Translations under genes and position numbers: made by a program
In this document: piece after piece, positions 2,737 to 39,200 of the stretch
Layout: each line of letters opens with the position of its first letter
Numbering within the stretch: the first letter of the stretch is position 1
The notes under the pieces: generated by a model
Told to the model about the DNA's origin: nothing
The model's database searches: none
Seen by the model: the letters and a program-made list of their open reading frames with translations, nothing else
Assembly: GCA_016839815.1 (NCBI GenBank)
Contig: JAEOTM010000084.1
Coordinates: forward strand, 1 to 39,200
Reading direction: 5' to 3'
Origin: Candidatus Hodarchaeota archaeon
GTDB taxonomy: Archaea > Asgardarchaeota > Heimdallarchaeia > Hodarchaeales > Hodarchaeaceae
Length of the DNA: 39,200 nucleotides

Positions 2737-3246
2737 GTGGAAGAAAACACAGATATCTTCGATTCAGAAATCACTGGTTCATCACTAGGAAGAACGGAAA
2801 TCGAGAGGATTAGAAAAGAAGTTAAAGGAAAAACTCTCCGAGTATACTTATTACTTGCACGAGCAGCTGATAGTGATTTTGGAGTACGGGAGGTTTTTCA
2901 TAACCTGAACTTTAGTAGTGTTTCATTAGCTGCTTATCATCTAAATAAGCTCGAATCTCTAAATCTGGTGAGAAAAACCAGTAATAATCGATATAAAGCA
3001 AGTAAACTATTGCCTTTAGGTGCTTATGAAGATTTTTTTGTTTTAAAGGGAAAGTATTTGCCTAAAGAAGCTTTTTTTCTTGCATTTTTCACATCATCAC
3101 TTTTTCTTGCTATTCTCTTTTTTTTCCTAAAAATATGGGAACCGATGTTAACACTTCTCCTAGCAAATGCAATTTTAGGAACTACTTATTCTTGGATGCG
3201 CTTTATTTCACTTTATAAACGTAAAGACGAAGAAGAACTAAAATAG
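2737..3246 (+). CDS. Membrane-tethered winged-helix transcription regulator
   Basis: GKTLRVYLLL...GVREV...LNFSSVSLAAYHLNKLESLNLV wHTH followed by two C-terminal hydrophobic helices and a charged tail. Confidence 0.8.
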   Translation: MEENTDIFDSEITGSSLGRTEIERIRKEVKGKTLRVYLLLARAADSDFGVREVFHNLNFSSVSLAAYHLNKLESLNLVRKTSNNRYKASKLLPLGAYEDFFVLKGKYLPKEAFFLAFFTSSLFLAILFFFLKIWEPMLTLLLANAILGTTYSWMRFISLYKRKDEEELK

Positions 3247-18909: not shown

Positions 18910-20277
18910 TTAACCTGAAACAGTGAACCCATCAAAAGCAATAGAAGGGACTTTACCCATAAAAGTCAACTTATTGTCGTTACCAAATGATAAAATTTGG
19001 TTAAATGCGCTATAAAGATTCCCTGCAATGGTAACAGCTTCTAATGGATGTTTAATTTCTCCGTGTTCGATAACAAAGCTGGAAGGAGAAACAACAGAAA
19101 AATCACCAGAAATTAGGTTGGAATGAAGCATTCCCATAAGAAAATCAGTCACAAGAATACCATTCTCGACCTCTGCAATTAATCCATCAAGATCTTTCGA
19201 TCCAGGAGTAAGGGAGATAGTTGTCGGAGAGACAGAGGGCAGTGATTCATAAGATTGAGGTCCACCTCTACTTGCGTTCCCTGTACTTTCAGTACCATAA
19301 GTTTTTGCATAGTAATTGTCAAAAATAAAGGTTTTTAGGACACCATTTTCAATAATAGGAGTAGTAGTACGAGGATAACCTTCTCCATCAATAGCATGGA
19401 CATTAGGATCCTCAAAAATCTGTCCATCGTCATAAATATTCAGATCTGATATTCCTACTTGATCACCAATTCTGTCTGCAAAAGCGCTTCTTCCTTCAAC
19501 AACACTTTTTCCATTCACAGAATTGCTGAGTGCTGTTCTGATTAACTGACCAGCTGCAATAGGATCGAAAACAAACTTAGTTTGTTCTGATTTACCTAAT
19601 GGTGTAGCGTTTAACAATTTTATAGCTTTTTCTGCTCCTTTAGTGCCAATGCCATCAAATGAAGGAACCCCTCTATCCATAATATAGTCAAAACCTGTTT
19701 TGGTTTTTCCATCTTCAACTGCAGTGATATAGGACTGACCAAAAGTACCCGTTGTTGCAGAGGCTTTTACAATCCCATCAGAATTCCCGACTGCGAATGC
19801 ACCATAGCCTACATATACACCTCCAGAAACCGATGTTATTCGGGGATCGTATTTCTTTGCTTCTTGAAAGATTTGATCTGCACCGTGAACGGCTTCCTCA
19901 GAACTGACATCCAAAACAGAAGAATCAAGAATACCTTCTTTACTACTATTGGGATTATGAACAAAAGATTCCCATCTGTCATCAACCTGATTTAGCTTTG
20001 CTCCAGTAATTGCTGACTCAATAGCAAAATCCACTGCCGAATCTGTGATTCCAGAAGCAGAAGCAAATCCAATTTTTTTATCAAGAACACACCGGCAACC
20101 AACACCTATGGTTCCTCCTCTTTGTGCTGTAATGATACCAGCATCCATATTAATGGCTAGTTCATTAGATTTAATCAGGTACAAGTCTAATGATTTAGCA
20201 CCGATTGCAGATCCGTGTTTTAGTCCACGTTCGATACGATTTAGAAGATCTTCTTTCATGTCTGTGAATTCGCTCAT
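18910..20277 (-). CDS. pmbA: TldD/PmbA family protein, PmbA (TldE)-type non-catalytic subunit
   Basis: G.SAFADRIGDQV, DGEG, IIENGVL, STGNASRG, SGDFSV, IAGN; lacks HExxxH; ATGA overlap with tldD. Confidence 0.85.
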   Translation of the reverse strand: MSEFTDMKEDLLNRIERGLKHGSAIGAKSLDLYLIKSNELAINMDAGIITAQRGGTIGVGCRCVLDKKIGFASASGITDSAVDFAIESAITGAKLNQVDDRWESFVHNPNSSKEGILDSSVLDVSSEEAVHGADQIFQEAKKYDPRITSVSGGVYVGYGAFAVGNSDGIVKASATTGTFGQSYITAVEDGKTKTGFDYIMDRGVPSFDGIGTKGAEKAIKLLNATPLGKSEQTKFVFDPIAAGQLIRTALSNSVNGKSVVEGRSAFADRIGDQVGISDLNIYDDGQIFEDPNVHAIDGEGYPRTTTPIIENGVLKTFIFDNYYAKTYGTESTGNASRGGPQSYESLPSVSPTTISLTPGSKDLDGLIAEVENGILVTDFLMGMLHSNLISGDFSVVSPSSFVIEHGEIKHPLEAVTIAGNLYSAFNQILSFGNDNKLTFMGKVPSIAFDGFTVSG

Positions 20278-21701
20278 TTTGATTCGCCTCCAAATCGAAC
20301 TTTAGAAAATAATAACTTAGGACCACCATCTCCAACAGGAAGAGGAAATTGTCCTGATTTGCCACATCCTCCGAAATAACCCGAAGAAAGTTCAAAATCT
20401 TTCGTTGCTCCCTCAACTCTTTTTAATAGATCGAGAATATTACCTGTTAAACTAACATCCTTGAGAGGATACTTTTTGTCACCATTCTCAACCCAATATC
20501 CACGTACAGCCTTGAAAAGAAAGTCACCAGATCCTTCGACTTGACCACCGCTAGTTCTAATGGCATAAATGCCAGTACCTAACTGTTCGAGGGCTTCTTC
20601 TTCAGTTAAGTCTCCAGGTGTAAAATAGGTATTTTTCATTCTGGGAATTGGAGGGAAGGCAAAATTAATTGCTCGTGCATTACCAGAGTATTCAGTGTTT
20701 AGTAATTTGGCAGTAGATCTTGAGGTTAGGAAATTTTTCAGAACACCATCTTCCATTAGTACCGTACGAGTAGTTTTTACACCTTCATCATCATAAGGAA
20801 GGTATAGAGGAGTGGATTTTCCATTAAATTCAGTAACTCCTTCATCAATAATCGTCACTATATCTGCCCCTAGTTTTTCTCCAATCTTATCATGAATTGG
20901 ACTACCTTTTGTTACTATAAAATCTGCCTCAGTTAAGTGTCCAAATGATTCGTGAGCAAGCACACCGACTAAAGTATTCTCACAATACGCTCTAAATTCA
21001 CCCGCTGGAGCTGATTTAGCTTTTAATTGTTCTTTAGCCCATAAGGCAGCATTTCGTCCTAGATCTTCAGGAGTTGAACCATCTCGCTTATAGTATTCTA
21101 ACCCATAGGAACCACCTCGTCCATCACCCGCGCGTACTAAATCCCCTTCTGGTGTTTTACTAACAACTGTAGTCCGAAGGTCAGAGATATAGGGTGACCA
21201 TTGAATTTCGGTTCCATCCGAATTGGTGAACAATTTCTTTCCAGATAATTCTCCATACATGAGAATAAGACTATTGATATCTTTACCATAGTCTTTAGCT
21301 GTTGATTCCATCCGATTGATCAAGTCTAACTTGATCTCAGGTTCAGCTTGCCATGCAGGCTCCCGAAGTTTCGGTTCCAATTTTACTTTGACAGCTGATT
21401 GAGGTTCAATTTCTGCCTTTACGATTACTTTATTGGAGGTTGCTTTCGCTATTCCTAATGCATCCAGAGCTGCTTGTTCCAATGCCTTGGGATTGGAAAT
21501 ATCAGCTGAAAAAGCATACGCTGAAGCCCCCTTATAATAAACATTAAATCCGACTCCAGTCCGATTCATTGTTTTTAATTGAGTAATACGTCCATTTTCT
21601 TTAATGATAGTACGAAGTAAGAGTTCATCATAACGGGCGTCAATGTAATCCGCACCTAATGATTCACCCTTATGTATTATCTTCTGTAGTTCATCGAACA
21701 T
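20274..21701 (-). CDS. tldD: TldD metalloprotease subunit
   Basis: HESFGHLTEAD, YDDEG, GNARA, PIPRMKNTY and GGCGKSGQ..PVGDGGP motifs. Start set at MFDELQ (21701); ORF track extends to 21749. Confidence 0.92.
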   Translation of the reverse strand: MFDELQKIIHKGESLGADYIDARYDELLLRTIIKENGRITQLKTMNRTGVGFNVYYKGASAYAFSADISNPKALEQAALDALGIAKATSNKVIVKAEIEPQSAVKVKLEPKLREPAWQAEPEIKLDLINRMESTAKDYGKDINSLILMYGELSGKKLFTNSDGTEIQWSPYISDLRTTVVSKTPEGDLVRAGDGRGGSYGLEYYKRDGSTPEDLGRNAALWAKEQLKAKSAPAGEFRAYCENTLVGVLAHESFGHLTEADFIVTKGSPIHDKIGEKLGADIVTIIDEGVTEFNGKSTPLYLPYDDEGVKTTRTVLMEDGVLKNFLTSRSTAKLLNTEYSGNARAINFAFPPIPRMKNTYFTPGDLTEEEALEQLGTGIYAIRTSGGQVEGSGDFLFKAVRGYWVENGDKKYPLKDVSLTGNILDLLKRVEGATKDFELSSGYFGGCGKSGQFPLPVGDGGPKLLFSKVRFGGESK

Positions 21702-21805
21702 AAAGTAGCACCTACTAAATACTACTAGATCGAGAACCCATCTTTTCATTAAAAGGGATATGATTGCGGCAGATTGAGTGTTAGGTGGAAAAGAGGAATT
21801 CTTAG

Positions 21806-22540
21806 CTAAGTAAGTTTTTTTAAGAGTTGATTTAACTCTTTTCTCATGATTACTCTTCCTTTCTCATCTGAGGTATCAAATATCGCGATGCAATGAGATT
21901 TTGTGTTGATTGTAAAAATTCTAATTGATTCAAAATTCAATTCACTAGTAGAAAATGCTTGATTTGCATGTTCACTAAAATCTATTATATGTCGAAGGAT
22001 TAAGGTCATTTTTTCCGCGTGTTCATTGACATTAGGATCTGTTATGGATTTGAACACGGGATGAAAAAACTTCGTTTCATAAATAAGATAATTCTTAATT
22101 TTAGAATTTCCCATAATTGCGATGAGATTATTTAAAGATGGTAAATCGATTTCTACCATATCTGTGTACATATTTTTCACAATCTCATGAAAACTATCGA
22201 AGAAATATCGTTCCACCACAGTTTCTTCATGTAAAACTTTCGTAAACATAAGCTCAAATCTTAGCACCACTTCACGAATGAAATCATACTGGTGTGGATC
22301 CTCCTCGGTAGTAGAAAGCACCCCATAGGTTAACACACCCTCATATAACAGAAACACATAATTATCTCTTAACCGAATAGACTTTATAGTCTCTTGCTGA
22401 GTTTCACGTAAAGCACCAAAAATAGCAGACATTAAACCAGCGTTTAGATCTTCATCAATTTCTTCATAATTATATGTACTGGTGAACTCATGGTTGAATA
22501 CTAGAATGCCAGTTTTATTGATGATACTAAGACCTATCAT
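21806..22540 (-). CDS. Longin-domain + roadblock-like domain protein (eukaryotic signature protein type)
   Basis: N-half GLSIINKTGILVF..DEDL.AGLMSAI..A.RE..IKSIRL..FLLYEG..YGVL..FIREVV.RF..F..F.EIV is a longin pattern; C-half shows alpha-beta-beta-alpha-beta-beta-beta-alpha roadblock topology. Confidence 0.7.
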   Translation of the reverse strand: MIGLSIINKTGILVFNHEFTSTYNYEEIDEDLNAGLMSAIFGALRETQQETIKSIRLRDNYVFLLYEGVLTYGVLSTTEEDPHQYDFIREVVLRFELMFTKVLHEETVVERYFFDSFHEIVKNMYTDMVEIDLPSLNNLIAIMGNSKIKNYLIYETKFFHPVFKSITDPNVNEHAEKMTLILRHIIDFSEHANQAFSTSELNFESIRIFTINTKSHCIAIFDTSDEKGRVIMRKELNQLLKKLT

Positions 22541-22747
22541 ATGATAAAAATCTCTTTTAATTCAGATCTATGATATTTTAGAGGAATAGTTGGAAATTCT
22601 TTCCATTGAAAAATAAATATTGATGCACGAATATAAGGGTTTGAGAATAAACTTTTATTATGTATTCTTAAGACTTCATACTTATTATTGTATTTGCTAT
22701 ACTCTAACTTCCCCGATCAGAAAACAAGATACGAAATGGAAATTAGC

Positions 22748-24010
22748 TTAAAACTGTTGAGTTGTAATCGGGGGAAAATCTGTTTCAAAAAGTCTATTTA
22801 CAATATCTAGGTAATCCAGATTCGAGATCTGAGCTACCCCTAAGGAATACAATTTCTTAAATGGAATTACTCCCATGAACATGGAAGAGAAAGCTTTGAT
22901 ATCCATATGAATTTCTACATCAAAGTCATTAGTATCATCCAGAAGAGTACAAATTCCTTTATCAAAATTAAGAAGGAGTTTGTTGTTATTAACTTCTAGG
23001 AAATCGTCTTCTAATGAGAGTAGAAGCTTTACAGTCTGATTACGAAAATTAAATGTCGATAAGTCAGTGAAAAGTTTCTTAACATTGATAATTCGATACA
23101 TTATTCCTAAGCCTTGAAGATTACTCTCTTGAGAGGTGAGAAATAGTTTATTTCCACCAGTACGTGGATCATGTAGAAGATAATGGAAGAAATCATCCTG
23201 AGTGTGAAAATACATCTCACGAACTTGATCAGCTTGAGTACGAAGATAAGCGAGTAATTCATGGAGAGCTGTACTATTTTCATAAATTAACTCTTCAATA
23301 ATGAGATCCTGTAGTATGAAATTGTCAGGGTCAACTCTTTTGAAGCTGAAGGCAAGAAATCCCTGAAGTTCACCGTTTTTCTTATAACCAACAACATCGA
23401 GCTTAGACACTGATCGTTTCATTGATTTTTCATTTGTCAAAATCATCCCATGTGTTTTTGTAACAAAACGGTTGAAGCAGTCAACAATTTCCTTAAGATT
23501 AGAAATCCCAAGTTTCACAATATGACTTTTACTACCTCTGGGTAATGAACTAGGCTTAAATCGATAGCGGTTCATCTTTTTGCCAAGACCATACCCCATA
23601 TCGGCGTAAAAATCAGGCCTAAAAGGATACAGAGCTGTAATTGTTACTCCCCGGTCATAATAATGATCATGAAACGCTTTTACAATATTTTTTGCCGCAT
23701 ACTCTTTCTTATATAGTAAATCCACGCAAACTAAGCCGATCCCTCCGACATCGACAAATCGATCAAATAAAGTCATTCTAAAATCGAAATAGACCATGCC
23801 TCCGACCAAAGTCTCTCCCTTAAAACAGCCAATATAATTGATATGAGGATCTTCCTCATTGGACGTTCTCATCCGATCAAGCCATGATTGTTGCGCCTCT
23901 GAAGAAAAATTATCAGGGAGCATAACAGGGTAGGCTTTCATAACGATTTTTTGGAACTCAGACAACTCATCAGAAGTGAGTTTTTTGAAAGAATATCCTT
24001 CGTATTTCAA
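22748..24010 (-). CDS. Eis-like GNAT acetyltransferase with C-terminal SCP2-like domain
   Basis: GGIGLVCVD, ALYPFRPDFY..MGYG, MYRIINV, L.LEDDFL..NN C-terminal domain; 420 aa, TTG start. Confidence 0.9.
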   Translation of the reverse strand: MKYEGYSFKKLTSDELSEFQKIVMKAYPVMLPDNFSSEAQQSWLDRMRTSNEEDPHINYIGCFKGETLVGGMVYFDFRMTLFDRFVDVGGIGLVCVDLLYKKEYAAKNIVKAFHDHYYDRGVTITALYPFRPDFYADMGYGLGKKMNRYRFKPSSLPRGSKSHIVKLGISNLKEIVDCFNRFVTKTHGMILTNEKSMKRSVSKLDVVGYKKNGELQGFLAFSFKRVDPDNFILQDLIIEELIYENSTALHELLAYLRTQADQVREMYFHTQDDFFHYLLHDPRTGGNKLFLTSQESNLQGLGIMYRIINVKKLFTDLSTFNFRNQTVKLLLSLEDDFLEVNNNKLLLNFDKGICTLLDDTNDFDVEIHMDIKAFSSMFMGVIPFKKLYSLGVAQISNLDYLDIVNRLFETDFPPITTQQF

Positions 24011-24207
24011 AGTAGAATGCCTCTAATATATTCATATTGAACAGTTAATAATGAAAATCGACAATAGAGTTATTTTTTTAAATATTCTTACATAGGCAAG
24101 GGCTAAGTTACTTGTATGTGATTTAATACCTAAAATAAGCCTCTAAAAGATAGGAAATCATGTTATTCTTAAGGAAAAAATGAAAAAAGAGAAAAAGAGG
24201 GAAAAGA

Positions 24208-26961
24208 TTAACCTGGTGGTTTTCGTCTGGATCTCTTTGGATCTGTCGCGTCTTTACCAGTACCTCCGCTATCACCTGAACCACCGAATTTATCTTTAAG
24301 AGCTCCAACACCCTTATCAAGTGCACCAGTCTTTTTGGCAGCATAAATCACTGCTGCTCCACCGCCACCAATGACAGCCCCACCAGCAGCCATCGGTAGT
24401 AAAGTATCGAACAACCCTGGTTTATGAATGGTGGGTGTGTACGGAATGAAGGTTGGGACCGTTTCCCGTGTGATAAGGATATCCTCAGGACCAATAGTGA
24501 TAGTAAGTGCATAAATCGTTGCTTCTCCTTCATCCATGTTTACTCGGAAGTAAATGTCAGTACTATTGAAAACACTTGTATACGTTTGATTCATGGGGAA
24601 AGGACCAACAGTTTCAGCAGTACTAGCTGTAAGCCTGCTGAAATCGATTACACTACCATTTGGATATAGTAGCTCAAGATCCAGATTTTGACCCTGACCG
24701 AAATTAACCTCAACGATAATAGCTAAACCAGCAGGTAAGTTTGTGACATAAAAATCATCATCCTTTACACGCATTTGCAAACTTGACATAACATGTGATA
24801 CGGGTTCATCAGGAAAATTTTGTATGAAATTAACTCTTGTAGCATGAGCTAAATCATCATTATCCTCATAAATATCATCAGTTTCAAGGATATCAATGGA
24901 TAGATTATATTGATTAGAGGTACCATCAATTACGCAAACAATATAGTACCGTCCTGATCGAGATGCAGTAAAACTTAACGTCTCGTTGAATAAAGTGCGA
25001 CTTTGTTCAGCTAAAGATTGATCGTCAAATAAAAGATCGAGGTCAATATCGTTGAGATATTCTTCAACACCCCATGTACCTGCTACATATGTCAGGTTGA
25101 TCTCAATCACATCTGATTCAGCAAGATAGAGGTAATACCAATCATCATCTTTATCACGGAGAATTAAGTCTGAATAATCCCCTTCTGCAATGGGTGCTGC
25201 GGTTTGTGAATTATCATTGGATTCAAAAGCATCATCAAATTCAGCAAGAACGATTGACATATTATACTCTACTCCAATATTCGCATATGAACCAAATTTT
25301 CCCGCAACTCCAATATAATATACGTCACTTCGCCAGGCCATAAATGATACGGTCTCTGTATTAGAGAGAGAAAGTATAGAGGTAGCGATAAGATAACCAT
25401 CTGCAGTGGCCAACGCTAAGTCTAAATCACCTAATGAATTATTGAATTCTATAGTAACTGTCAGATAATCACCTGGAAGGAGAGAAATGACATAAAAGTC
25501 TGGATCACCTTCTTGGGAGAAAAGACCACCAAATGGATCCGCAGGAGTGGGGCGAATCTCTTGAGAGGTCGAAGGTAATAAATATGGATGGAATATGTCA
25601 TCATTATCTTCTGCCCAATCATCAATTTCGTCCATAGCGATGGTGAGGTTGTAATAACGAGGGTCAGAATTATCACCGGAGACGTGAATGAGATAAATTG
25701 CATCCTTGTTAGCTCTATGAGGACCTATTCTTAAACCACCAAATATTGGAATTCCTGCTCCTACTAATCCTGCAGCAGTTTCATTCTCATACAAAGTTAA
25801 TTCTAAATCACCAATGAAGGAGAACCATTTGAGTTCAACCAAAATTCTTTCTGTTGCAGAAACTGCAACTTTATACCAATCATCAGAACTTTCAAAAATA
25901 ACTAATCCTGTATAATGACCTTCATTCAACCCTAAAGCAGTAGCATTGACATCGTTACCACCTGCTTCAACTTCGATCGAGTCTTCAATTGTGATATTTA
26001 ATTGATAGTAATTTGCAGTATTCATATAGCTATTATCGAAAAGGAGATAGTGCCATCCATCGTAGTAAGTTTTAAAATTTATAGAATCTATATCATTCGC
26101 TCCAGATTCATCAAATTTCTCAATGCCAGTTAGAGTTCCCTCAATGGCTTCCTCATCATAAACATAGAAGGAAGGGCCGTCTGGTTCGGGTGATCCTCCA
26201 TCAACAAAGGCTGCAACGGTAATTGTCACATCAGTGTTATTATAAAACCAAATACAATACCAATCTTGCTTATTAAAGTCAGAAAAACCAGTTGTTGTGG
26301 AAAATCGAAGATTATCATACGATCCTGGAGTGATTTCATCATCGCTGGATCCATCACGGGGGTCATCAAGCTCACTAATTTGATCATTAGGAGTTGTTAA
26401 TTCCCATTTGTCTTCCAGTATAACTGACATATTGTAGACAGTCGAATAGTCGTCTTGATAGCCGATGAATGGTTTTTCTGCAATTACAAGAATAAAGAAG
26501 GTCTCGGCTTGGGAAACAAAAATTGGACCAATTCCTTCTTCGTTTCCATTACCATTACTTACCCCAATAAGACTCGCATTCTCCGCTCGAAGTTCAATAT
26601 CAACGTCTGCCACTAATTCAGGGTCGTCGTAGGTGAAATATTGCCCATTTATATCATAGACATTTGTTTGATTGAACTCTAAATAGATAGAGAAGTAGAA
26701 ACCTGGATTAACATCGAATCGGTAGTAATCAGCGTCGGTAGTACTGACATTCAAAGGTGTGTTGGGATTATTCTTAATAGAGTTTGATCCGAGATGGAAA
26801 GCGGTAGACCAATCCTCTGGGCCTTCCCAGATTGTATCAGAGTAAGTCAGAGGACCAGCTGCAACCTCTTGTGGTGTCAAAGGTGAGAATACTAGTAAAA
26901 ACTGCAAGAAAAAGACAACAAGGAGTAATTGTATAAGTCGTGACTTTGGACCGAATATCAT
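24208..26961 (-). CDS. Single-pass surface protein with about six pre-peptidase C-terminal (PPC)/collagen-binding-like beta-sandwich repeats
   Basis: Signal peptide from MIFGPK (ATG 26961, GGAGG RBS, ATGA overlap with upstream stop). Repeats D-x-x-E-x-N-D...D.DWY...D.DL.L...E...YYI.V...Y.L.I, then Gly-rich TM and ~40-aa tail. Confidence 0.85.
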   Translation of the reverse strand: MIFGPKSRLIQLLLVVFFLQFLLVFSPLTPQEVAAGPLTYSDTIWEGPEDWSTAFHLGSNSIKNNPNTPLNVSTTDADYYRFDVNPGFYFSIYLEFNQTNVYDINGQYFTYDDPELVADVDIELRAENASLIGVSNGNGNEEGIGPIFVSQAETFFILVIAEKPFIGYQDDYSTVYNMSVILEDKWELTTPNDQISELDDPRDGSSDDEITPGSYDNLRFSTTTGFSDFNKQDWYCIWFYNNTDVTITVAAFVDGGSPEPDGPSFYVYDEEAIEGTLTGIEKFDESGANDIDSINFKTYYDGWHYLLFDNSYMNTANYYQLNITIEDSIEVEAGGNDVNATALGLNEGHYTGLVIFESSDDWYKVAVSATERILVELKWFSFIGDLELTLYENETAAGLVGAGIPIFGGLRIGPHRANKDAIYLIHVSGDNSDPRYYNLTIAMDEIDDWAEDNDDIFHPYLLPSTSQEIRPTPADPFGGLFSQEGDPDFYVISLLPGDYLTVTIEFNNSLGDLDLALATADGYLIATSILSLSNTETVSFMAWRSDVYYIGVAGKFGSYANIGVEYNMSIVLAEFDDAFESNDNSQTAAPIAEGDYSDLILRDKDDDWYYLYLAESDVIEINLTYVAGTWGVEEYLNDIDLDLLFDDQSLAEQSRTLFNETLSFTASRSGRYYIVCVIDGTSNQYNLSIDILETDDIYEDNDDLAHATRVNFIQNFPDEPVSHVMSSLQMRVKDDDFYVTNLPAGLAIIVEVNFGQGQNLDLELLYPNGSVIDFSRLTASTAETVGPFPMNQTYTSVFNSTDIYFRVNMDEGEATIYALTITIGPEDILITRETVPTFIPYTPTIHKPGLFDTLLPMAAGGAVIGGGGAAVIYAAKKTGALDKGVGALKDKFGGSGDSGGTGKDATDPKRSRRKPPG

Positions 26962-29900
26962 TTGATTAACCTCCTTTGAGTGAAAATAGTGGTGGGAATT
27001 ATTAACAGGCCAAATAGGATAGTTAGGGTCAACGTTAACGGTTCGATGTGCCACTTTTTACTATCGGCTGTGATACGTGGAGCGTCCGATATAACGGAGA
27101 GCGTATTTCCATTAGGAAGGTCATCCACACGTTTACCGCTCATTGGTCCTTCTTGTGGAATAATTATATCGGATTTTCCGTGAAGGACAAATATCCATCC
27201 GTCTGCTGTTCCTACTGCCACATCTTGAATACCATCATCATTGAAATCACCCAAAGTCATAGTAGTAATTACATATGAGGGTACGAAAGATGCCCATACC
27301 ACTTCACCTAGGTTTCCATCAAGAGCAAAGATATTATCATGGTTAAGGGAAAGAATATCTTTTACTCCATCATCATTCATATCTGCTACAAGATACTTCG
27401 GAAGGTAGAAGGTAGACCGATCCTCAAAGAACCATAGGATAGTTGATACTTTGCTGTTTAGGACGTACGTTCCTTCACCAAAGGAGTGAACAATAATCTC
27501 ATCTTCTCCATTATTGTCGAAGTCGGCAATGGTCATGTGAGAAAGACGGAAGGGAATATACAAGTTCATTTTCCCTGCTTGAGTAGGTGCACTAATCCAA
27601 TCATTACTTTGATATGTTGCTACAGTTCCATTACGAACGATTGTAGCGATCATGGGAAGACTCTGATCTTTGTCAAAGAGACCAACGGCAAAGTCTTGGA
27701 CTGGAACTGCGAACGCTCGCAAATATGCACCAGTAACTCCATTATAAAGCCAAATAGAATGTTCATAAGCTGATACAACAATGTCTAGGCTGTTACCAGT
27801 ACCACGGAAGTCGGCAGCTTCAAACTTCGTGAAAGGAGCAAATGGTTGATACCTCTGCCAAATAATTGATCTGCTATTAACGTTGTATAAGTCAAAGCGA
27901 CCCCATAAGTGAGTGAAACGGAAACCAAGAGCCAGACCTAGCTCTTCTACAACGCCATCTTGATTAGTATCCACGAACTTCATACTATTAATAATAACAG
28001 GGCCAAGATAATCTTCCCAAATCGGGCGTCCAGTTTCACCGTTTACAATTACTAAAAGACCACTCTTTAGAGCAATCGCAATATCATCAAAACCATCTTG
28101 CAGATGGAAATCATGAATAGCAATTTGGGAAATGGGTGAACTGACACGATATTTCCAAATCATATCACCAGTCAATCCATCAAGAGAAATTAAATAGCGA
28201 GCACGATCACCAAAGATGATATCCTCAAAACCATCAGCGTTGAAATCGCCCACACCAATTCTTGTAACAATTCCTCTAGTCTGGAAGGAAACAGAATCAT
28301 TCATTTGGACAGCAATATTCCGATAATGAGTGGGTTCATATCTCACGTAAGTAAACATGGCTGAAAAACCACTAGGAGTAAGAACAGCCACATCAGCAAA
28401 CTCACCGAAGTCACCAAGGGAATGATAGGGTACAAAACCACTGAATTCATAGAAGAAGAGAGGAGTCCCCTTACTACCATCTAGAACTTTGAGTTCACCA
28501 GTATGAGGATAGTTATTCCCTTGAAAAATGGTGGAGAAAAGAAGATCGTCATGCTGACCATCATCATCCAAGTCACCTTGGAAGATATGAGCAGCATAGC
28601 TATTCCAAAGATAATACTCCCAAAGTGATTCTTTTAGATCCAAACCTGAAAAAGTCATCAGCTTGGTGGGTCCGAAACTCTCGTAACTAAAGTCATCAAT
28701 AGAAAAGAAACCTTCCCAATTGGGTAAAGTACCAGTAACTTTCACCGTGTGAATACGGCCGAGAGGATCGTTCAATTCCGCAAAGATTTGAGGTTCAGAG
28801 TTTCTAATGGTAGTATTGGTGATTTCAACACCAAATTCATCATATGCTGTCCAGATAAACGTTCCTGAGTAGAAACTCGAATCAGCCGTTCCGAAATATG
28901 CTGAGACTCGATATGCCTTTGAATCGATAGTAATGAAGTTATTTGCTTCACGAGTGATAATCACCATATCACCAGAATGAGGAATAATTTCTGCTGACCC
29001 TGAGGCATTATAGGTTGTCCATCCGTATCGGTAGACGTTATTTAGATTGGAAAAGTTTAACCCATCGATCTTATGAGCTATCCGTTCGTTTTCATAGAAT
29101 TCCTCGAAAGTTGCAGTATAATTGCCGTTAGTACCCATTACTTGAAACATGACATCGTCAAAAGAATCCTCGTTGAAATCATATCTGAGAGTATCCTCGT
29201 AGTTTCCAACAGAGTTTTCTATGGTCATATTCCAAAGTTGTTGAGATCTATTAATTAGACCATCGTATGCAAACATAATTCCATTGTTAAGGATCAAAAT
29301 ATCCTCATGACCATCATCGGTTAAGGGCATTTGAACTGCAGTCAGACCAAAAACAGCCTCACTAACATTATATTCATGGATAATTGATCCATTAATATCA
29401 ATATAGGCTACTATTCCAGCGGAAGTAATCGTATCACGACAGGAGATTAATAAGGTCTGATTGCCAATGGAAATGTGATCAATATTCCAACTATCGTTAA
29501 CTTCGTAAAGTGGAGAAGCAGTATCGTATAAAACATCTCCATCATCTCCGTTAACGACTAATACACGATTTGATAGGCCAATCAGAATATCGAGAGTGGG
29601 GTCCCCATTCATATCAGCAAAGATAAATTCGTTCAACCCATAAGTAGACTGATACCTAAAGGGAACAGGACTAGTCCAGCTTTCAAAGGGACTATTCTCA
29701 TTGATAATTAACCCATATAGTTTTAATGCTCCGTTTTCACCAGCAGCCTGTTTATCATAATCAAAAGCTAAAAAGACTAGGTCATCACGTCCATTCTGAT
29801 CTAAGTCAACAGCTTTCATCCATAGTATAGCCGAGTTCCTTGTGAGAGGATCTACGCTATTAGAAAGATCGTATACCCAAAATTCTTTACCAGTTTGACC

Positions 29901-32900
29901 ATCAAGGGCTTGAATAACTGGATAGCCTCCGTACACGGCAGAATCAGGATCCATCAGTCCAAGGAGAACATCGTCTAAACCATCATTGTTAACATCTACG
30001 TTTACTACCAGGACTTCTGGACTTGGATCTCTCGTCCAGTAATTACTCTCATAGCTATCATTTTCCCAAAGTAGATCAAAATCAAGATACAAAAGATCAG
30101 TTTCAGGTGGATTGGTTTCCATTCCTTCAAAGGAATACACATTCCCTCGGAGGCAGGAAACGATCACCTCATCCATACCATTTCCATTTGCATCATACAT
30201 GGCAATGTCAGTAGTCTCAGTGATGAAGGAATCAGTTTGCCAGGATTGATAATATTCTAATCCTTGATAGTGTTCATTCCAGTGACCACCAGTCTTGGAG
30301 ACTTCGACAAGGTAAGCTTGACTCCCAGAAGCTACAGCAATCTCACGACGATAGTCCTTATCACTATCACCAGTATCAATGGCTCGTGCTTCTTTGAAAT
30401 CAAATTTAGTAAAGTCAGAAGAGGGATTCATCCCGAAAAAGATGTTATTATAGAATCCACGAGTCTTATCCTCTGTATGGAAATCTCTACCAAAAGTAGT
30501 TTCGAAAAGCCTTCCAGTTGAGGCATAACCTGTATTAGTGTCAGCTCCTGGGTTGTCGGAACCAGTTGCATCATCTCCATAGGCTACAAGATTTCCGCCA
30601 TAGGCAACAATACCTTCTTCCTCGGTAACAATGGGAGCATCATAGACGACAATAGGAGTGGGTGAGGATCTACTAACGTAAGTGAGTCCACTTCCACCAC
30701 CTGCAGTGGCATTGAAGAAGCTACCAACAACTTCATCTTGATAACTTAATTCGCCTCCGCCTGTAGTCAGACTGCCACCAACAACTTGGACTAAGCCAGA
30801 ATGAGCGGAAATATCGCCAGTAGAAAGCCGAGAAATACTTCCAGTGACACTAGAGGAATAACCAATATTAGCTGTTTGCCAATTAGTTGTGTATTTAGTC
30901 GCTGAAAAAGCAGCAATACTGAAAAAGTCGTATTGAGACATGAAGGAGTAGGCAAAACCACCTGTGAAGTGAGGAGTAATTGCGGGTCCAACAGAAATTA
31001 GCGATCGAATCACGATATTTGGGTTTTCTTTAAGCACCATTAAACTAAAGCCTAAAAGAGGAAATACTCTATAGGTGGCAAATGGAGGTGTAGTAGTGAC
31101 TGGTTCCGGTTCTCGCCAAGTATTCCCATCGTCTTTGGAATAAGTCACTTGTAGAGCTCCTGAAGGTAGATTTCCATCAGCTTCGAAAATGACCATTAAA
31201 GTTCGATCGGGGGTAATTGTCTGAGTAATTGAAGGATGTAATTCATCGATAGCTTCACTAGTAGCTCTCGAGTACGGATGCACCTCATCCCACATTGTGG
31301 AGGAATTGGATTTGGCAATCCATAAGTCTAAATCTACTTTAGCTTCAGAGAATTTTAATCCAGTAAAGACAATAACCACATCGCCACTAGTGGAACGAAT
31401 CGCATCATGAGAAACCGCACGATACCCTGATCTACCCCAGGTAGCGTTATTATTTACAGCTGAGAAACCAATATTGGGAATCCGTGCTTGATATGGAGTA
31501 AGACCAGTAGTGAACACATTTTGCCAGTAAATTCCACCCGTTATTGCATCCATATAGGAAATGGCAACACCTTGTCCAGTGTTGTCACTATGAGCCCAAA
31601 CACTCGGATTGTAAAGGGTCGCTCCAAGTATCGCAGCAGCTCGTTCCTCACTTAATAATGGATCAAATATCGCATTTTCCCACCACAGAGTTCCTGCATT
31701 TTCTTTAAGTTCAAATAACCAAATACCGACACGAGTATACGTCGAAAAGGTTAACGAACCAGAGAATGCCAGGAAAACACGGCCTTCACGAGTTTGGAAC
31801 AGGGAGGGATGGATTTCAAAGGTAGAATAGCTATATGGGATAGAGGCATATCCACCCATAACAGTAAAAATACGAGAGAGTAGTGTATTGGTGGAAACTT
31901 GACCATGTTGAGACCAAGTGTCACCAAAGTCGTTACTTGTGGCATAATAGAGATTGGAACCACCTTTGAAGATTTGTAACCATTGACCTCGTTGGAAACC
32001 AGTAGTCATATCATACTGTAATTCAATAAAGTCAGTATTACGTAAAGCAAGTTGGACTTTAGTTTCAACATCAAACATCTGCTTTAATTTCATATACGGG
32101 AAGTTGACAAAGCTAGTTAAAATCGAACGTTCAAGATAGTGATTGTCACGTCCATGAGGACCTGTTTGCGAGTTCTCGTAAATCACAATACCCTTGAAAG
32201 TTCCAACAATAAGCTCTTTGTACTCGTCATAATCCTGATTGTCCACCTCAATATCATAAACCGGATTATCCTCCATAAGATGCATGGGTGCCCACCAGGT
32301 GTAGGCATAAGTACCAATTTGATTTTCAAGGATGGCCACAAAGCCGTTATACTGGCCCCACCAGGTCTTATTGACTCCACCAAGGATTATTTCATTGAAT
32401 GTATCATTATCTGTATCAGAGATCACAATGGATTCAATTGAGAGTGTTTTAACAGCTTCAGACGATAATGGATTTCCAGGGATGAAGTACCTGCCTCGAA
32501 CTGGATAGGGATCAACAAGGAAGTTTTCATAGAACTGGTCAGCACCGTTGGATTCAAACACAAAGAGGAAGCTTCCCGCGGCTAAAACAAATTCACCGTA
32601 TCCATTATAATCAAGATCTCCACCATAAGCGGCAGCAGTGAATTGAGTAATACCCAGGTCTTGGAAAAGAGGTGCCCAAGCAGATTGACGAAGATCGGCT
32701 TGCCAGATTAAGGTGTATTCGTCATCTATTGAAACGAATCCATCATTATTTTGTTCCCAGACAAAAATAGATAATCCTGCAGTTGCTACCATTTCCAAGA
32801 AGCCATCGTTATCCATATCGAGACCAACAACGAGTTCCTCAACATGATCCCAGATGGTTCGGTAAAAGGTGCCACTGACGCCTTCTAATTGATCCCACGC

Positions 32901-35900
32901 ATACGGGGACTGCGTAGAAAGTTCAGTGTGTGTGATATCCTGAGAACGATACGCTCGTTTGTACGTATTATTGGTGAGGTGTTCAAAGACATATAAATTA
33001 TTATCAAAATCACCAACAATAACTTCTCCTCTTCCATCTTGATCTAAATCTCCTGTTTCGAGGGTGAGTGTCCATCGTTCAAGTTCTGCTTCACTTGTCC
33101 ACGTCTCGAAGATGTGGTAGCCGTAATTCGAAATTGGAGTGAGATGGCTATCTGTACCAGATTTTAAGTTAATTTCCAGTCGGGCGATAATGGGATTTGT
33201 TCCAATAACATAGGCATTGTGGTTATCGTATTCAGCGTATAATTGAATTAACTGGTGTGTATGGGTGTTATAGGTAGTAATGTGGCTAACTTTGCCTGCC
33301 TGATTATAAGCAAATGCAGCATGGGTGAGATTATTGAAACGTAAACCACCCCATGAATTGGTGTATAGCCATTTGTTTTCTTCCCAGCGAGGAGCCCATT
33401 TATAGCCGACATTTTCGAAGTAAGTAGTAGATACAATGGTTCGTTGACGATTTGACCAACCAACTGTTAAATCAAGATCCCCATCACCATCATAGTCATA
33501 CAATTCGGGAGAATCAAACAATTTGTTTGTGGCCTTCGTGTTCAAATCCTCAAAATAATCAGGATCCAACATGAAGAGTGTATTATGGATGTTTTCAATG
33601 AAATAAACACGTCCATTGGTTAATACAATATCTTGATCACCGTCACCATCTACATCTCCAACAGCTGTTTCAGGCATACGCTGAGATTTTTGAAGAGCTC
33701 GGGTAAGTAAACCTGTAATTTCTACATTTTTCAATTCGAATTTACCAGTATACATACCTAAGGGGCCTACGAGGGGATCATAGGTATATACATCCAATCC
33801 TGCTTTAGCATTTGTCCCAACCATAGGGTCATATAATTCTCCAGGAACGTTACTGCCCCACCCAAGGAGCATAACTTCAGGGAAATAATCCTGATCCCCA
33901 TTGAAGTCCACAAACCTTGGAGAAACTGACTTCTGCTCATAGAATGGATTTAAATTTACTGGGAGGAAGAAGTATTGAGCTAGCTCAGATAGTTCATGGG
34001 TCAGCTCTGGTACCACAATAAGCTTTCCATTATCCGTACCAATGACCATGTCATTTTCGGGTATGTTTAGTTCGAAAATGTCTTGAAAGGGTTGGAAGGC
34101 AGGAACATTTTCAAAGATCGCGTTAAAGAATGCACTGAAAAGGGAGATATGAGTAACTGATGCAAATTCACCGTAAAAACCTGGTGGAAGGGATTGCTGA
34201 ACTTCCAGCTCGAAGATCTTTTCATCAAGAGAAACAGGGACCTCCCAGTTATCCCGGAGAATCTGACTTTTGGTCTCATTAAATAGCCAGGTTGGTATTT
34301 TACCTGGGCTTTTAACTTCAACGATATCCCAAATATTAGTTCCTTGAGTATACGAATCATTGGTGTATGAATTCCATAATAGGTTGTATTGATGGGCACT
34401 GGCATCATATTCAAACATAATGATTTTTCCATCACTAGTACCAAGTACAATTTTCTTTCCTTCAGATTCACCAGAGGTGTAAGCTTTGTAATAATCTAAA
34501 TCGAGACTACCAATGGTAAGAGAAGTGGCTGCATCCATAGGTCGATAAAGAACAGGTGCATATCCACCTTTAATCATGAAATAACCATGATTAGTAACGT
34601 TAATTCGCATATAGCGGAAATACGACCACTTCTTCTCGGAAAGTAGAGGATCAATGTCGATTTGGAGATCATCATCTCCCGGAGCAGAGGAAACTAATGC
34701 TAAAGAAATATCTTCATTAGGCACGAGGGCCCATTCACTGTCACCACGAGAGACTTCAAATGAAATTTTATCTAATCGGGGTAAGGTCCATTCATTAAAA
34801 CGGAGAATGACATCATAACCTAATCCTTCTTCGGGAATAGCAACGAGTCCATCACCCATAACCTCTTGATCTTTACCCCAGTCAACAATCGCACTGGCAA
34901 GTGTATCTCGAGCATTGAATACTGTATAATTTTCAGCAGGATCATGATTAATGTCTCGAATGCCGTTAATCTCAGTATCATCGACTACATTATCCCCATT
35001 CATATCAATGTATACACCATCTTCACCCCAAGGATCCAGCTTACGATGAATGGCCATCGAGGTGTTTTTCGGCCATTGGGGTTCCCACCCATACGCATGA
35101 GGTTCAGGAACCAAGACATCGTCAGTAACGCTGACATAATAGACATGTGCACCTGCAAGCATACTTGAATTAAGGGAGGAGTACGTGTAGGCGTTAAAAG
35201 TATCCACAGAGGGGATTTCGTTATTAGACCATGTCATAAAATCAATATAATGATTCAAGTAATGACCGAGACCTTCGAATCCTCCAAGCTGCCAAGACTC
35301 CAATGGAGCCCATAGTCGATGGGTGAGATAGCGTTCACCAACAATGGGTAAATCTTCATAATTGATCACGATGGTATCTTGACCGACTGCAATATACGCA
35401 ATTTCATCAGGGTCGTCATCATCCAAATTATCCACGATCACTCGAAGAACAGGTTTCCAAGTTGTATTACCACTATCCCAGTGATAACGATATGAGTTAT
35501 CTTGTGTTAAGGGCCAGGGTTTCCCATTGATCTGTAAAATTGTTCCGTTGTTTTCATAGATGTACACACGACCTAATTCAGTCCCAACCACAATTTCAGG
35601 GAGAGCGTTATAATTGGTGTCTCCAGTAGCTAAGGAAAAAATCTTTTCTCCAACAGGAATGGTAGCTTTTTCTGTATATTCAATCCAATGCTCATCGCTG
35701 AAGGGATAACCCGAGTGATTGGTATATTCATAAACGTGAATCTTCTCATCCCAAGAACCTGCAATAACATCAGGAAGATAATCTTTATCGACATCAGCTA
35801 TTGCAACACCCCAGACTTGCTGGATTTTGGGACTAGTCCATACATGAACGAATTGGTTTTCCATATTATCATAAGGATCGTAGATATGTTCTTGTTCAAA

Positions 35901-36437
35901 GACATAGACATGACCATCAGCTGATCCTGCAGCAATCTCCATAAAATCGTTATTATCAGTATCACCAAAGGCAATAGATAACACATCACCTTGAATGATC
36001 TCATCACCACTGTCCCAGACTTTATCATATTCACGAGAGAAGCCATTCCATCGATAAATATGGATCTCGTTATCATAGAGATATCCACCACCAACCGCGA
36101 GAAATTCGTTACTAGGGTCAGTAGCAATACATCTAACGGCTGCTTTGGTGAGCCAAGGCTCCCAGACTTGTTGATAACCCATTTCAGTATTCATGAGATG
36201 TTTGGTAATATCCATGCTGCTGGGAAGGATCTTATCACCTACTCCAAGATCATTAGGATCAAATATTTCCCCTTCATTCGCAACGGATGCTCTCAGAGAG
36301 GGAGCTTCTCTTTCCATATTCAGAAAGAAATCTTCCCAGGAAGGTTCAAGTTGCAGGAGACCTGTCGATACAACAGGACTAAAGACAAAAACACTAAGTA
36401 CGCCAATTGCAATCATTTGATACATTAATTTTTTCAT
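26958..36437 (-). CDS. Giant (~3160 aa) single-pass surface protein with FG-GAP/VCBS-type beta-propeller repeats, an Asp-box (BNR) propeller and jelly-roll inserts
   Basis: Signal peptide; >20 (G)D-x-D/N-x-D-G-x-x-E/D-I-V-V-G repeats; SNDFGDTW and SKDDGNTW Asp-boxes; LDG.TG...W PQQ-like blades; C-terminal TM + RRLIK. Two ATGs (36455, 36437), each with GGAGG RBS. Confidence 0.9.
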   Translation of the reverse strand: MKKLMYQMIAIGVLSVFVFSPVVSTGLLQLEPSWEDFFLNMEREAPSLRASVANEGEIFDPNDLGVGDKILPSSMDITKHLMNTEMGYQQVWEPWLTKAAVRCIATDPSNEFLAVGGGYLYDNEIHIYRWNGFSREYDKVWDSGDEIIQGDVLSIAFGDTDNNDFMEIAAGSADGHVYVFEQEHIYDPYDNMENQFVHVWTSPKIQQVWGVAIADVDKDYLPDVIAGSWDEKIHVYEYTNHSGYPFSDEHWIEYTEKATIPVGEKIFSLATGDTNYNALPEIVVGTELGRVYIYENNGTILQINGKPWPLTQDNSYRYHWDSGNTTWKPVLRVIVDNLDDDDPDEIAYIAVGQDTIVINYEDLPIVGERYLTHRLWAPLESWQLGGFEGLGHYLNHYIDFMTWSNNEIPSVDTFNAYTYSSLNSSMLAGAHVYYVSVTDDVLVPEPHAYGWEPQWPKNTSMAIHRKLDPWGEDGVYIDMNGDNVVDDTEINGIRDINHDPAENYTVFNARDTLASAIVDWGKDQEVMGDGLVAIPEEGLGYDVILRFNEWTLPRLDKISFEVSRGDSEWALVPNEDISLALVSSAPGDDDLQIDIDPLLSEKKWSYFRYMRINVTNHGYFMIKGGYAPVLYRPMDAATSLTIGSLDLDYYKAYTSGESEGKKIVLGTSDGKIIMFEYDASAHQYNLLWNSYTNDSYTQGTNIWDIVEVKSPGKIPTWLFNETKSQILRDNWEVPVSLDEKIFELEVQQSLPPGFYGEFASVTHISLFSAFFNAIFENVPAFQPFQDIFELNIPENDMVIGTDNGKLIVVPELTHELSELAQYFFLPVNLNPFYEQKSVSPRFVDFNGDQDYFPEVMLLGWGSNVPGELYDPMVGTNAKAGLDVYTYDPLVGPLGMYTGKFELKNVEITGLLTRALQKSQRMPETAVGDVDGDGDQDIVLTNGRVYFIENIHNTLFMLDPDYFEDLNTKATNKLFDSPELYDYDGDGDLDLTVGWSNRQRTIVSTTYFENVGYKWAPRWEENKWLYTNSWGGLRFNNLTHAAFAYNQAGKVSHITTYNTHTHQLIQLYAEYDNHNAYVIGTNPIIARLEINLKSGTDSHLTPISNYGYHIFETWTSEAELERWTLTLETGDLDQDGRGEVIVGDFDNNLYVFEHLTNNTYKRAYRSQDITHTELSTQSPYAWDQLEGVSGTFYRTIWDHVEELVVGLDMDNDGFLEMVATAGLSIFVWEQNNDGFVSIDDEYTLIWQADLRQSAWAPLFQDLGITQFTAAAYGGDLDYNGYGEFVLAAGSFLFVFESNGADQFYENFLVDPYPVRGRYFIPGNPLSSEAVKTLSIESIVISDTDNDTFNEIILGGVNKTWWGQYNGFVAILENQIGTYAYTWWAPMHLMEDNPVYDIEVDNQDYDEYKELIVGTFKGIVIYENSQTGPHGRDNHYLERSILTSFVNFPYMKLKQMFDVETKVQLALRNTDFIELQYDMTTGFQRGQWLQIFKGGSNLYYATSNDFGDTWSQHGQVSTNTLLSRIFTVMGGYASIPYSYSTFEIHPSLFQTREGRVFLAFSGSLTFSTYTRVGIWLFELKENAGTLWWENAIFDPLLSEERAAAILGATLYNPSVWAHSDNTGQGVAISYMDAITGGIYWQNVFTTGLTPYQARIPNIGFSAVNNNATWGRSGYRAVSHDAIRSTSGDVVIVFTGLKFSEAKVDLDLWIAKSNSSTMWDEVHPYSRATSEAIDELHPSITQTITPDRTLMVIFEADGNLPSGALQVTYSKDDGNTWREPEPVTTTPPFATYRVFPLLGFSLMVLKENPNIVIRSLISVGPAITPHFTGGFAYSFMSQYDFFSIAAFSATKYTTNWQTANIGYSSSVTGSISRLSTGDISAHSGLVQVVGGSLTTGGGELSYQDEVVGSFFNATAGGGSGLTYVSRSSPTPIVVYDAPIVTEEEGIVAYGGNLVAYGDDATGSDNPGADTNTGYASTGRLFETTFGRDFHTEDKTRGFYNNIFFGMNPSSDFTKFDFKEARAIDTGDSDKDYRREIAVASGSQAYLVEVSKTGGHWNEHYQGLEYYQSWQTDSFITETTDIAMYDANGNGMDEVIVSCLRGNVYSFEGMETNPPETDLLYLDFDLLWENDSYESNYWTRDPSPEVLVVNVDVNNDGLDDVLLGLMDPDSAVYGGYPVIQALDGQTGKEFWVYDLSNSVDPLTRNSAILWMKAVDLDQNGRDDLVFLAFDYDKQAAGENGALKLYGLIINENSPFESWTSPVPFRYQSTYGLNEFIFADMNGDPTLDILIGLSNRVLVVNGDDGDVLYDTASPLYEVNDSWNIDHISIGNQTLLISCRDTITSAGIVAYIDINGSIIHEYNVSEAVFGLTAVQMPLTDDGHEDILILNNGIMFAYDGLINRSQQLWNMTIENSVGNYEDTLRYDFNEDSFDDVMFQVMGTNGNYTATFEEFYENERIAHKIDGLNFSNLNNVYRYGWTTYNASGSAEIIPHSGDMVIITREANNFITIDSKAYRVSAYFGTADSSFYSGTFIWTAYDEFGVEITNTTIRNSEPQIFAELNDPLGRIHTVKVTGTLPNWEGFFSIDDFSYESFGPTKLMTFSGLDLKESLWEYYLWNSYAAHIFQGDLDDDGQHDDLLFSTIFQGNNYPHTGELKVLDGSKGTPLFFYEFSGFVPYHSLGDFGEFADVAVLTPSGFSAMFTYVRYEPTHYRNIAVQMNDSVSFQTRGIVTRIGVGDFNADGFEDIIFGDRARYLISLDGLTGDMIWKYRVSSPISQIAIHDFHLQDGFDDIAIALKSGLLVIVNGETGRPIWEDYLGPVIINSMKFVDTNQDGVVEELGLALGFRFTHLWGRFDLYNVNSRSIIWQRYQPFAPFTKFEAADFRGTGNSLDIVVSAYEHSIWLYNGVTGAYLRAFAVPVQDFAVGLFDKDQSLPMIATIVRNGTVATYQSNDWISAPTQAGKMNLYIPFRLSHMTIADFDNNGEDEIIVHSFGEGTYVLNSKVSTILWFFEDRSTFYLPKYLVADMNDDGVKDILSLNHDNIFALDGNLGEVVWASFVPSYVITTMTLGDFNDDGIQDVAVGTADGWIFVLHGKSDIIIPQEGPMSGKRVDDLPNGNTLSVISDAPRITADSKKWHIEPLTLTLTILFGLLIIPTTIFTQRRLIK

Positions 36438-36456
36438 AGGTATTCCTCCTTGCATT

Positions 36457-39200: not shown

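Follow-up and report, generated by a model that had tools for sequence, protein, structure and literature searches.

Cultured Asgard archaea have no S-layer lattice and carry unidentified 'complex surface proteins' (PMC9834061; 10.1101/2025.11.06.686947), which have been proposed as mediators of the cell–cell contacts on which models for the origin of eukaryotes draw (PMC9834061); the cells that have been imaged are bounded by a single membrane (PMC9834061). One giant surface protein, the 'badge' protein LOKIASV2_13140 of Nerearchaeum marumarumayae, has been proposed as a contributor to the irregular surface; according to its authors it has homologues in all Promethearchaeaceae genomes, and no partner gene or repeat stalk is described for it (10.1101/2025.07.22.663070). 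Here, we describe three adjacent genes, A, B and C, that encode very large, predicted membrane-anchored proteins in Candidatus Hodarchaeota archaeon (order Hodarchaeales; GenBank assembly GCA_016839815.1). The stretch of DNA that was analysed (the window) is the entire 39,200-bp contig JAEOTM010000084.1 (contig C26) of a 4.24 Mb genome bin in 206 contigs, and the three genes occupy its minus strand from position 24208 to position 39200. The reading that we favour on balance is that they are the Hodarchaeales three-gene form of a patchily distributed cassette restricted to Asgard archaea, in which A and B would make up one surface assembly and C would be an accessory. To our knowledge, cells of this Hodarchaeales genus have never been imaged.

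The most familiar comparison is with the integrins. Integrin α/β and, as predicted, A/B (paired at the gene level) are both pairs of large type I membrane proteins with short cytoplasmic tails, and integrin α and B both have an N-terminal FG-GAP propeller with Dx[DN]xDG Ca2+ loops. However, B has at least four propeller regions where integrin α has one, A is unrelated to integrin β, no VWA/β-I domain carrying a MIDAS (metal-ion-dependent adhesion site) is listed for A (both halves), B or C at E <= 0.01 or 0.001, and no GFFKR or NPxY motif was seen by eye in the tails of the three proteins. The nearest experimentally studied prokaryotic relative of the repeat region of A is CglD from Myxococcus xanthus, a surface protein with COMP/thrombospondin-type DxDxDG repeats that is needed for Ca2+-dependent gliding on rigid substrata (10.1101/2023.10.19.562135). 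CglD is an outer-membrane lipoprotein of 1130 residues that combines a VWA/MIDAS domain with EGF-like repeats rich in Cys, whereas A has a C-terminal transmembrane (TM) helix, three Cys residues in a total of 2231, a 1250-residue head without a Pfam match and no VWA domain. The same repeat motif makes up the type 3 'wire' of thrombospondin and COMP (bacterial forms, TSP3_bac, PF18884), but in A 22 repeats are spread with inserts over ~830 residues of a predicted membrane-anchored protein that has no EGF domain and no lectin-like C-terminal domain. C consists of six β-sandwiches of the PPC/clostridial collagenase CBD type (PF04151), three of them with an N-terminal acidic ExN[DN] motif; in contrast to the pre-peptidases, no peptidase is attached, and PPC domains form the whole ectodomain of what appears to be a membrane-anchored protein. 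The badge protein was compared by description only; the A head is absent from a closed genome of the Promethearchaeaceae sample (G142) and kinship between the two proteins seems unlikely. At the level of domain families, the cassette is a combination of known extracellular repeat types with a head that has no Pfam match. An earlier reading of the window, made from its letters without database searches (the original prediction), had pointed to no described system with this organization, and a literature search likewise found no paper on the cassette and none combining Hodarchaeales with FG-GAP.

The three genes are very closely packed. The 3' part of gene A (36457..39198, with the piece running to 39200) comprises 913 codons and a stop codon, its 5' end being open at the contig end, and encodes TSP3-type repeats, a C-terminal β-rich module, a TM helix and a basic tail. 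Gene B (26958..36455) encodes 3165 residues with a signal or anchor segment, at least four FG-GAP propeller regions, a weak BNR-like region, a C-terminal TM helix and a basic tail. Gene C (24208..26961) encodes 917 residues from its ATG: a signal peptide, then PPC-like domains, six in tandem, a TM segment rich in Gly and Ala, and a long basic tail. At the A–B junction (36435..36470), the first ATG of B (36455) lies one base beyond the TAG stop codon of A (36459–36457), with GGAGGG upstream at 36468–36463; a second candidate ATG at 36437, 18 nt after the first, is preceded at a distance of 7 nt by GGAGG (36449–36445). At the B–C junction (26958..26974), the ATG of C (26961–26959) and the TGA of B (26960–26958) overlap as ATGA, and GGAGG (26974–26970) lies 8 nt upstream. 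The tight coupling of three minus-strand genes that was noted in the original prediction is thus borne out by the one-base gap, the ATGA overlap and the presence of GGAGG at both junctions, and the range of 1–19 bp given there for the A–B gap is explained by the two candidate start codons, each of which has its own GGAGG(G). A T-rich run directly 3' of the stop codon of C (24173..24207, minus strand), read from the sequence, is likely to mark the end of the transcription unit.

Since the window is a complete contig, gene A has been cut by the assembly. Extension beyond the contig, which had been recommended in order to recover the rest of the operon, yielded the N-terminal part of A at the end of contig C162 (L001:16020-20000): 1326 codons, including those for the 1250-residue head, the last residues of which repeat the first residues of A in the window. 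The two contig ends (39170–39200 in the window and 19970–20000 in L001) share a stretch of 29 nt, located within a TSP3 repeat, that has two mismatches. A single ORF (open reading frame) covers both halves in five other species of the genus, where the matches of the two query pieces overlap each other by eight residues, and the database orthologues of A (2201–2248 residues) are single ORFs that read across both pieces. From the contig-end overlap and these uninterrupted orthologues, the whole of A is taken to be ~2231 residues long. The sequences of C162 and C26 mark them as genomic neighbours, and the break between them looks like one induced by the repeats during assembly. The gene 5' of the complete A on C162 is divergently oriented; A is therefore the first gene of the operon.

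In each of the three proteins, a hydropathy scan found hydrophobic stretches at both ends, an N-terminal segment and a C-terminal helix, with an acidic ectodomain between them and a basic tail after the helix, which is the architecture originally described (a large acidic ectodomain, one C-terminal TM helix and a basic tail). The TM helix is clear in A (36499..36570, minus strand; hydropathy 2.1 over 19 residues, with the basic tail after it) and in B (26982..27038, minus strand; hydropathy 2.15), and is weaker in C, where it is a Gly/Ala-rich segment read directly from the sequence. Inspection of the C-termini by eye revealed plain TM helices and basic tails, with no PGF, PEF or PIP sorting motif before the TM helix in A, B or C, unlike archaeal S-layer proteins and the PGF-CTERM substrates of archaeosortase. 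The proteins have isoelectric points (pI) of 4.05–4.33 and each is within the top 0.5–4% most net-acidic ORFs of the genome; C also contains 1.85 N-glycosylation sequons per 100 residues, 3.6 standard deviations above shuffled sequences. Because TSP3, FG-GAP and PPC are extracellular domain types, and because of the signal-like segments, the TM helices, the acidity and the sequons of C, all three proteins are likely to be located at the cell surface. The signal and TM segments, together with the basic tails, the domain types and the retention of this topology in the fusion described below, lead us to infer export and type I anchoring.

The distribution of the genes was assessed in 400 Asgard genomes, 21 species genomes of the genus and 17 class relatives. 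The A-B-C order and the tight junctions recur in eight further contigs of the genus, where the identities are 70–76% for A, 56–59% for B and 42–48% for C, and A-B-C is also present in a second family of Hodarchaeales at 29–42% identity. All three genes occur together in the same 12 of the 21 species genomes and each is absent from the other nine, two of which are 93–94% complete; A-B-C is therefore gained or lost as a whole. Within the phylum sample, the A head and the first propeller of B extend to several further families. A match to the B propeller, in 61 other genomes from several classes, lies directly 3' of a match to the A head on the same contig and strand, and in all 11 of the distant loci that were inspected the B ORF begins at, or within a few bases of, the end of A. 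Among these genomes is the closed 6,035,313-bp genome of Ca. Lokiarchaeum ossiferum, where the A–B pair is NEF87_004127/NEF87_004126. About 80 of the 400 genomes (~20%) carry the pair (A at E < 1e-100 in ~84 and B at E <= 1e-40 in 79), and the homologues of the cassette proteins are labelled Hodarchaeales, Heimdallarchaeota or Promethearchaeota, which agrees with the earlier assignment of the DNA to a probable Asgard archaeon. The cassette is an Asgard-restricted, old, accessory module.

C was found in none of the 17 class relatives outside Hodarchaeales, and its database hits are nearly all labelled Hodarchaeales or other Asgard; being confined to the order, it is ruled out as part of the conserved core. 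In Hodarchaeales the third-gene position is held by the six-PPC protein; family f5 and a paralogous cluster have a NosD/right-handed β-helix protein there; and family f31 has no adjacent third gene, an FtsX-like permease following after a gap. The original prediction treated the triple as the unit, proposed a synteny test across Asgard genomes and would have been refuted by a lack of synteny in relatives. The genes proved to be syntenic, as A-B-C across Hodarchaeales and as A-B in the 61 other genomes, so that the triple stands as a conserved unit within the order, but the core is the A–B pair and C is lineage-specific.

In one genus (g78), fusion has joined A and B in a single ORF, 4716–4901 residues long in one count and 4271–4901 residues across genomes G347, G346, G356, G360 and G364. 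The fusion at L038:4649-19165 (G347) retains the C-terminal TM helix of A, a 75-residue basic linker and the N-terminal hydrophobic segment of B, an arrangement of TM, linker and TM that would place both ectodomains on the same side of the membrane. Taken together, the coupled translation signals, the gain or loss of the whole unit, the deep adjacency of A and B and their fusion make it very probable that A, B and C are one functional unit. That A and B also form a physical complex is a narrower claim, on which the fusion and the synteny bear only indirectly and which we consider slightly more likely than not.

A paralogous cluster in reversed order, B'-A', occurs in some genomes, including this one. 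At L043 (G009:C1:1636256-1656254) it consists of B' (~3100 residues) followed by A' (2231 residues), an 850-residue NosD/β-helix protein and a 912-residue TPR protein; in this closed genome of the genus the B'-A' cluster lies directly 3' of A-B-C. In the genome under study, contig C3 (4554 bp) carries a fragment of the cluster, namely the end of a 668-residue ORF followed by the first 853 residues of A'.

The FG-GAP assignment of B is secure at the family level, with FG-GAP_3 scoring 86.3 bits against a cut-off of 26.9 (Pfam families PF13517/PF01839). There are 14 Dx[DN]x[DN]G loop motifs and at least four FG-GAP regions, at residues ~100–400, 900–1350, 2050–2300 and 2700–3100. Propeller 1 (residues ~78–410; 35226..36224, minus strand) is the most conserved part of the protein, with ~50% identity to the B proteins of Loki and f31 type and 54 invariant columns across classes. 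A plain sequence search of B against the PDB gave no hit; the closest solved sequences to propeller 1 are ITFG2 (E 5.8e-9), followed by BBS2, kaptin and integrin α-6. Among these relatives, ITFG2 and kaptin (KICSTOR) and BBS2 are cytosolic eukaryotic FG-GAP propellers, and all 20 of the 20 aligned propeller 1 members also match Pfam BBS7.

This conservation bears on the strongest alternative to a joint A–B assembly, in which A, B and C would be co-regulated and non-interacting, each an acidic, tethered part of an amorphous glycocalyx-like layer, placed in one operon for dosage and engaging no specific complex or ligand. Asgard cells do have an irregular proteinaceous coat and no S-layer, the acidity of A, B and C is very high, sequons abound in C, and the third gene is interchangeable among lineages. 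However, the adjacency of A and B persists in 61 genomes across a deep divergence, and one genus has them fused; the 54 invariant columns of propeller 1 and the conservation of the β region of A exceed what a filler coat would need; and an occurrence of ~20% speaks against a basic coat role. We regard this alternative as unlikely, and a joint assembly of A and B as the better account of the same observations.

The remaining domain assignments raise a second alternative, that the assembly is a platform that captures polysaccharide, protein or detritus for feeding, with the PPC rod, the BNR-like region and the NosD/β-helix protein as polymer-binding modules. PPC is the only family that Pfam found in C (37.8 bits against a cut-off of 25.9), and no peptidase domain was found by this search. 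A self-built hidden Markov model resolves six tandem PPC-like domains (residues 40–827; 24481..26844, minus strand) at E values of 1e-25 to 3e-35 in 11 of 11 sequences, C and its ten orthologues; a sequence search of C against the PDB gave no hit. In B, residues ~1450–1850 form a weak BNR-like stretch with two Asp-boxes. Its match to the sialidase/BNR family (GH33, PF13088) is below the cut-off (BNR_2, 19.7 bits against 31.4), in the PDB it is matched best by sialidase L (64 residues, E 0.0087), and a 16-sequence alignment contains no invariant Arg or Tyr that could represent a conserved Arg triad or Tyr. PPC domains, BNR-like Asp-boxes and right-handed β-helix proteins are common in secreted proteins that bind or degrade polymers, and the cassette proteins have Pfam matches to PPC, BNR-like and β-helix families. 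On the other hand, neither hydrolase domains nor conserved catalytic residues were seen in the three genes, the flanks in Hodarchaeales hold no transporter or glycoside hydrolase (they hold a GNAT gene, a TldD/PmbA pair and an epimerase), and the variable third gene stands outside the conserved core. A feeding platform is improbable, though slightly less so than the alternative considered below.

These results also refine the original assignment of a different Ca2+-binding repeat to each protein. The DTDxDGLxDxxE-type TSP3 repeats of A are upheld by a TSP3_bac match above the Pfam cut-off. For B, the GDxDxDGxxEI/FG-GAP repeats were correctly recognized and the weak BNR-like stretch had been missed. 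For C, the PPC domains are confirmed, but the DxxExND repeat is not general: the [DE]xxExN[DN] motif is present in only three of the six domains.

From the N- to the C-terminus, A is composed of a signal-like segment, the 1250-residue head, the TSP3-type repeats, the β-rich module, the TM helix and the basic tail. The TSP3-like region lies at 36964..39198 (minus strand; PF18884 TSP3_bac, 41.3 bits over three stretches, cut-off 25, E 1.4e-10), and 18 of the 22 DxDxD motifs of the whole protein fall in the window. The head, which lies outside the window, gave no credible Pfam match in any of its three segments, even at E <= 10. Among 1.84 billion cluster representatives, 71 match it at E <= 1e-30; a profile of the head searched against PDB sequences matched only designed helical repeats and a TSP3-like stretch. 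An AlphaFold model of the head (predicted local distance difference test, pLDDT, 60.5) is confident only for an N-terminal α/β domain, which is followed by ~640 residues of helices and then by long strands. Three parts can be recognized: a putatively caspase-like α/β domain, ~640 residues of amphipathic helices and a ten-strand β-sheet, one face of which is greasy.

The best VIA match of the N-terminal domain is the CHAT domain 8tl0_A (Z 11.0, 160 residues, 4.1 Å), and legumain (5obt_B) is matched at Z 9.0; generic three-layer α/β folds (periplasmic-binding and receiver) are tied close behind, within one Z unit (Z 9–10). Within the domain, W, H, G, N, D and W are conserved. A 23-sequence alignment of the head, inspected for a His–Cys catalytic dyad, has no Cys column that is invariant or nearly so, and the domain, should it be caspase-like, would therefore be inactive. 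The same domain (profile positions ~5–185) is also present by itself at the N-terminal end of other large proteins, which have 826–2040 residues and different downstream parts (hits P0121, P0125, P0129, P0140, P0143, P0147, P0158 and P0166). Elsewhere in the genome under study, a 1787-residue ORF with many TSP3-like repeats (C78:42893-48253) has a weak match, at 29% identity over 326 residues (E 6e-9), to the end of the β region and the first repeats of A, and may be a shorter relative.

The near-invariant columns of the head are densest in the β region. A second model covering residues 830–1228, based on 54 diverse homologues (pLDDT 73.1), consists of a 58-residue helix followed by ten strands of 14–19 residues and one shorter strand. 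All ten strands are amphipathic across the 54 homologues, one face having a mean hydropathy of +1.3 to +3.8 and the other of -0.6 to -2.5. All 50 of the 50 best VIA matches to this model are membrane β-barrels (Z 7.6–10.8, root-mean-square deviation 3–9 Å), headed by CymA (4d5b; Z 10.8, 204 residues, 5.3 Å) and including CdiB, EspP/BrkA, TonB-dependent receptors and Sam50. Foldseek against the PDB returned nothing at E <= 0.001 for either the whole head or the β region; its top rows are autotransporter barrels for the β region (E >= 2e-3, TM-scores 0.07–0.39) and the large lipid-transfer proteins MTP, lipovitellin and apoB for the whole head (E 3e-3 to 2e-2).

These matches are the basis of a third alternative, in which the head of A would be an extracellular lipid-handling or membrane-inserting module: its helices and barrel-like sheet would bind lipid or insert into the membrane of a partner or of the cell's own vesicles, and the Ca2+-stiffened TSP3 stalk and the B propellers beside it would position the head for touch, tethering or lipid exchange. 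The amphipathicity of all ten strands, the uniformity of the VIA matches, the autotransporter barrels at the top of the Foldseek rows and the lipid-transfer proteins matched by the whole head are all in its favour. Against this, none of the Foldseek matches is significant (E > 1e-3, TM-scores 0.07–0.39), the VIA Z scores are barely above the usual best for models that have no true match, and the models themselves are of modest confidence. The sheet aligns equally to barrels of 12 to 22 strands, which suggests a generic curved meander, and the greasy face may pack on the protein's own helices. We read the β region as a large curved meander sheet, as modelled, with one greasy face, and consider a membrane-active head the most doubtful of the three alternatives, with only a slim chance of being correct. 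If it were true, the prokaryotes most closely related to eukaryotes would possess a device dedicated to membrane contact.

An ordinary secreted hydrolase cluster can be set aside: no catalytic motif had been recognized in the window, the missing part of A, in which a catalytic domain might have been concealed, has no conserved active-site Cys, and A, B and C are predicted not to be enzymes, there being no catalytic domain or conserved catalytic residues in any of them. A joint A–B assembly is ranked as most likely, above independent coat proteins, polymer capture and a membrane-active head.

Several observations weigh against this ranking. The cassette is found in only ~20% of the 400 genomes and is missing from nine of the 21 species of its own genus; the pair is absent from family f20 (0 of 135 genomes), from family f4 (0 of 12) and from the closed 4.3 Mb genome G142, which belongs to the same family as L. 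ossiferum. The fusion of A and B, seen in just one genus, could have arisen once. The models of the A head are of modest confidence (pLDDT 60.5 and 73.1), the topology of the three proteins is assigned by hydropathy and domain types alone, and the sequons of A and B, in contrast to those of C, are not enriched relative to shuffled sequences. The literature search found no paper naming the L. ossiferum tags NEF87_004127/004126; the Asgard glycoproteomics paper concerns strain MK-D1, not L. ossiferum. A pan-Asgard cassette is ruled out by the ~20% occurrence in the sampled genomes, and its patchy distribution means that the cassette is neither a general Asgard coat nor a general requirement for partner contact.

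The following mechanism is proposed for the joint assembly. A single transcript would run from upstream of A on the neighbouring contig to the T-rich run after C, and the three proteins would be produced from it by coupled translation. Their N-terminal signals would direct export, and their C-terminal helices would then tether them, leaving the short basic tails on the cytoplasmic side. The DxDxDG-type loops would bind Ca2+ and thereby stiffen the TSP3 region of A and the FG-GAP propellers of B. A would display its membrane-distal three-part head, composed of the putatively inactive caspase-like domain, the amphipathic helices and the greasy-faced ten-strand sheet, and B would supply a chain of propellers with the conserved one at its N-terminus, so that the A head and the first propeller of B may together constitute the conserved distal tip of the assembly. 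C would add a rod of six PPC β-sandwiches, probably glycosylated. The likeliest role would be contact with partner cells or particles or a share in the irregular surface coat; an adhesion or contact role taken by itself, as put forward in the original prediction, is a tentative proposal that we would not yet back over its opposite.

On the 3' side of the cassette, positions 18910–24010 encode a GNAT/Eis-like acetyltransferase with an SCP2 domain, a 244-residue ORF that matches no Pfam family and a TldD/PmbA pair whose stop and start codons overlap, and the gene order in this interval is identical in the nearest relative (75–92% identity). The GC content of the cassette (24208–39200) is 0.405 compared with 0.351 for positions 1–24207, and the GC content at third codon positions (GC3) is slightly higher (0.29–0.33 compared with 0.23–0.28). 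The difference probably stems from the composition of the repeats, which are rich in Asp and Gly, and not from a foreign origin. A recent foreign island is unsupported, as the flanks are syntenic with those of the nearest relative, GC3 is scarcely raised and the composition is rich in Gly and Asp.

The patchy, accessory distribution of the cassette limits the role that it could have in general scenarios of eukaryogenesis. The head of A is the most conserved and least understood part of the cassette, and its fold matches, all of them weak, are to the outer-membrane barrels of bacteria and mitochondria. The cassette provides named candidates for the unidentified surface structures of Asgard archaea: the proteins are very large and predicted to be membrane-anchored, and the A–B pair is conserved as a unit. 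As the pair is present in the cultured L. ossiferum, its localization, partner binding and Ca2+ dependence can be tested there.

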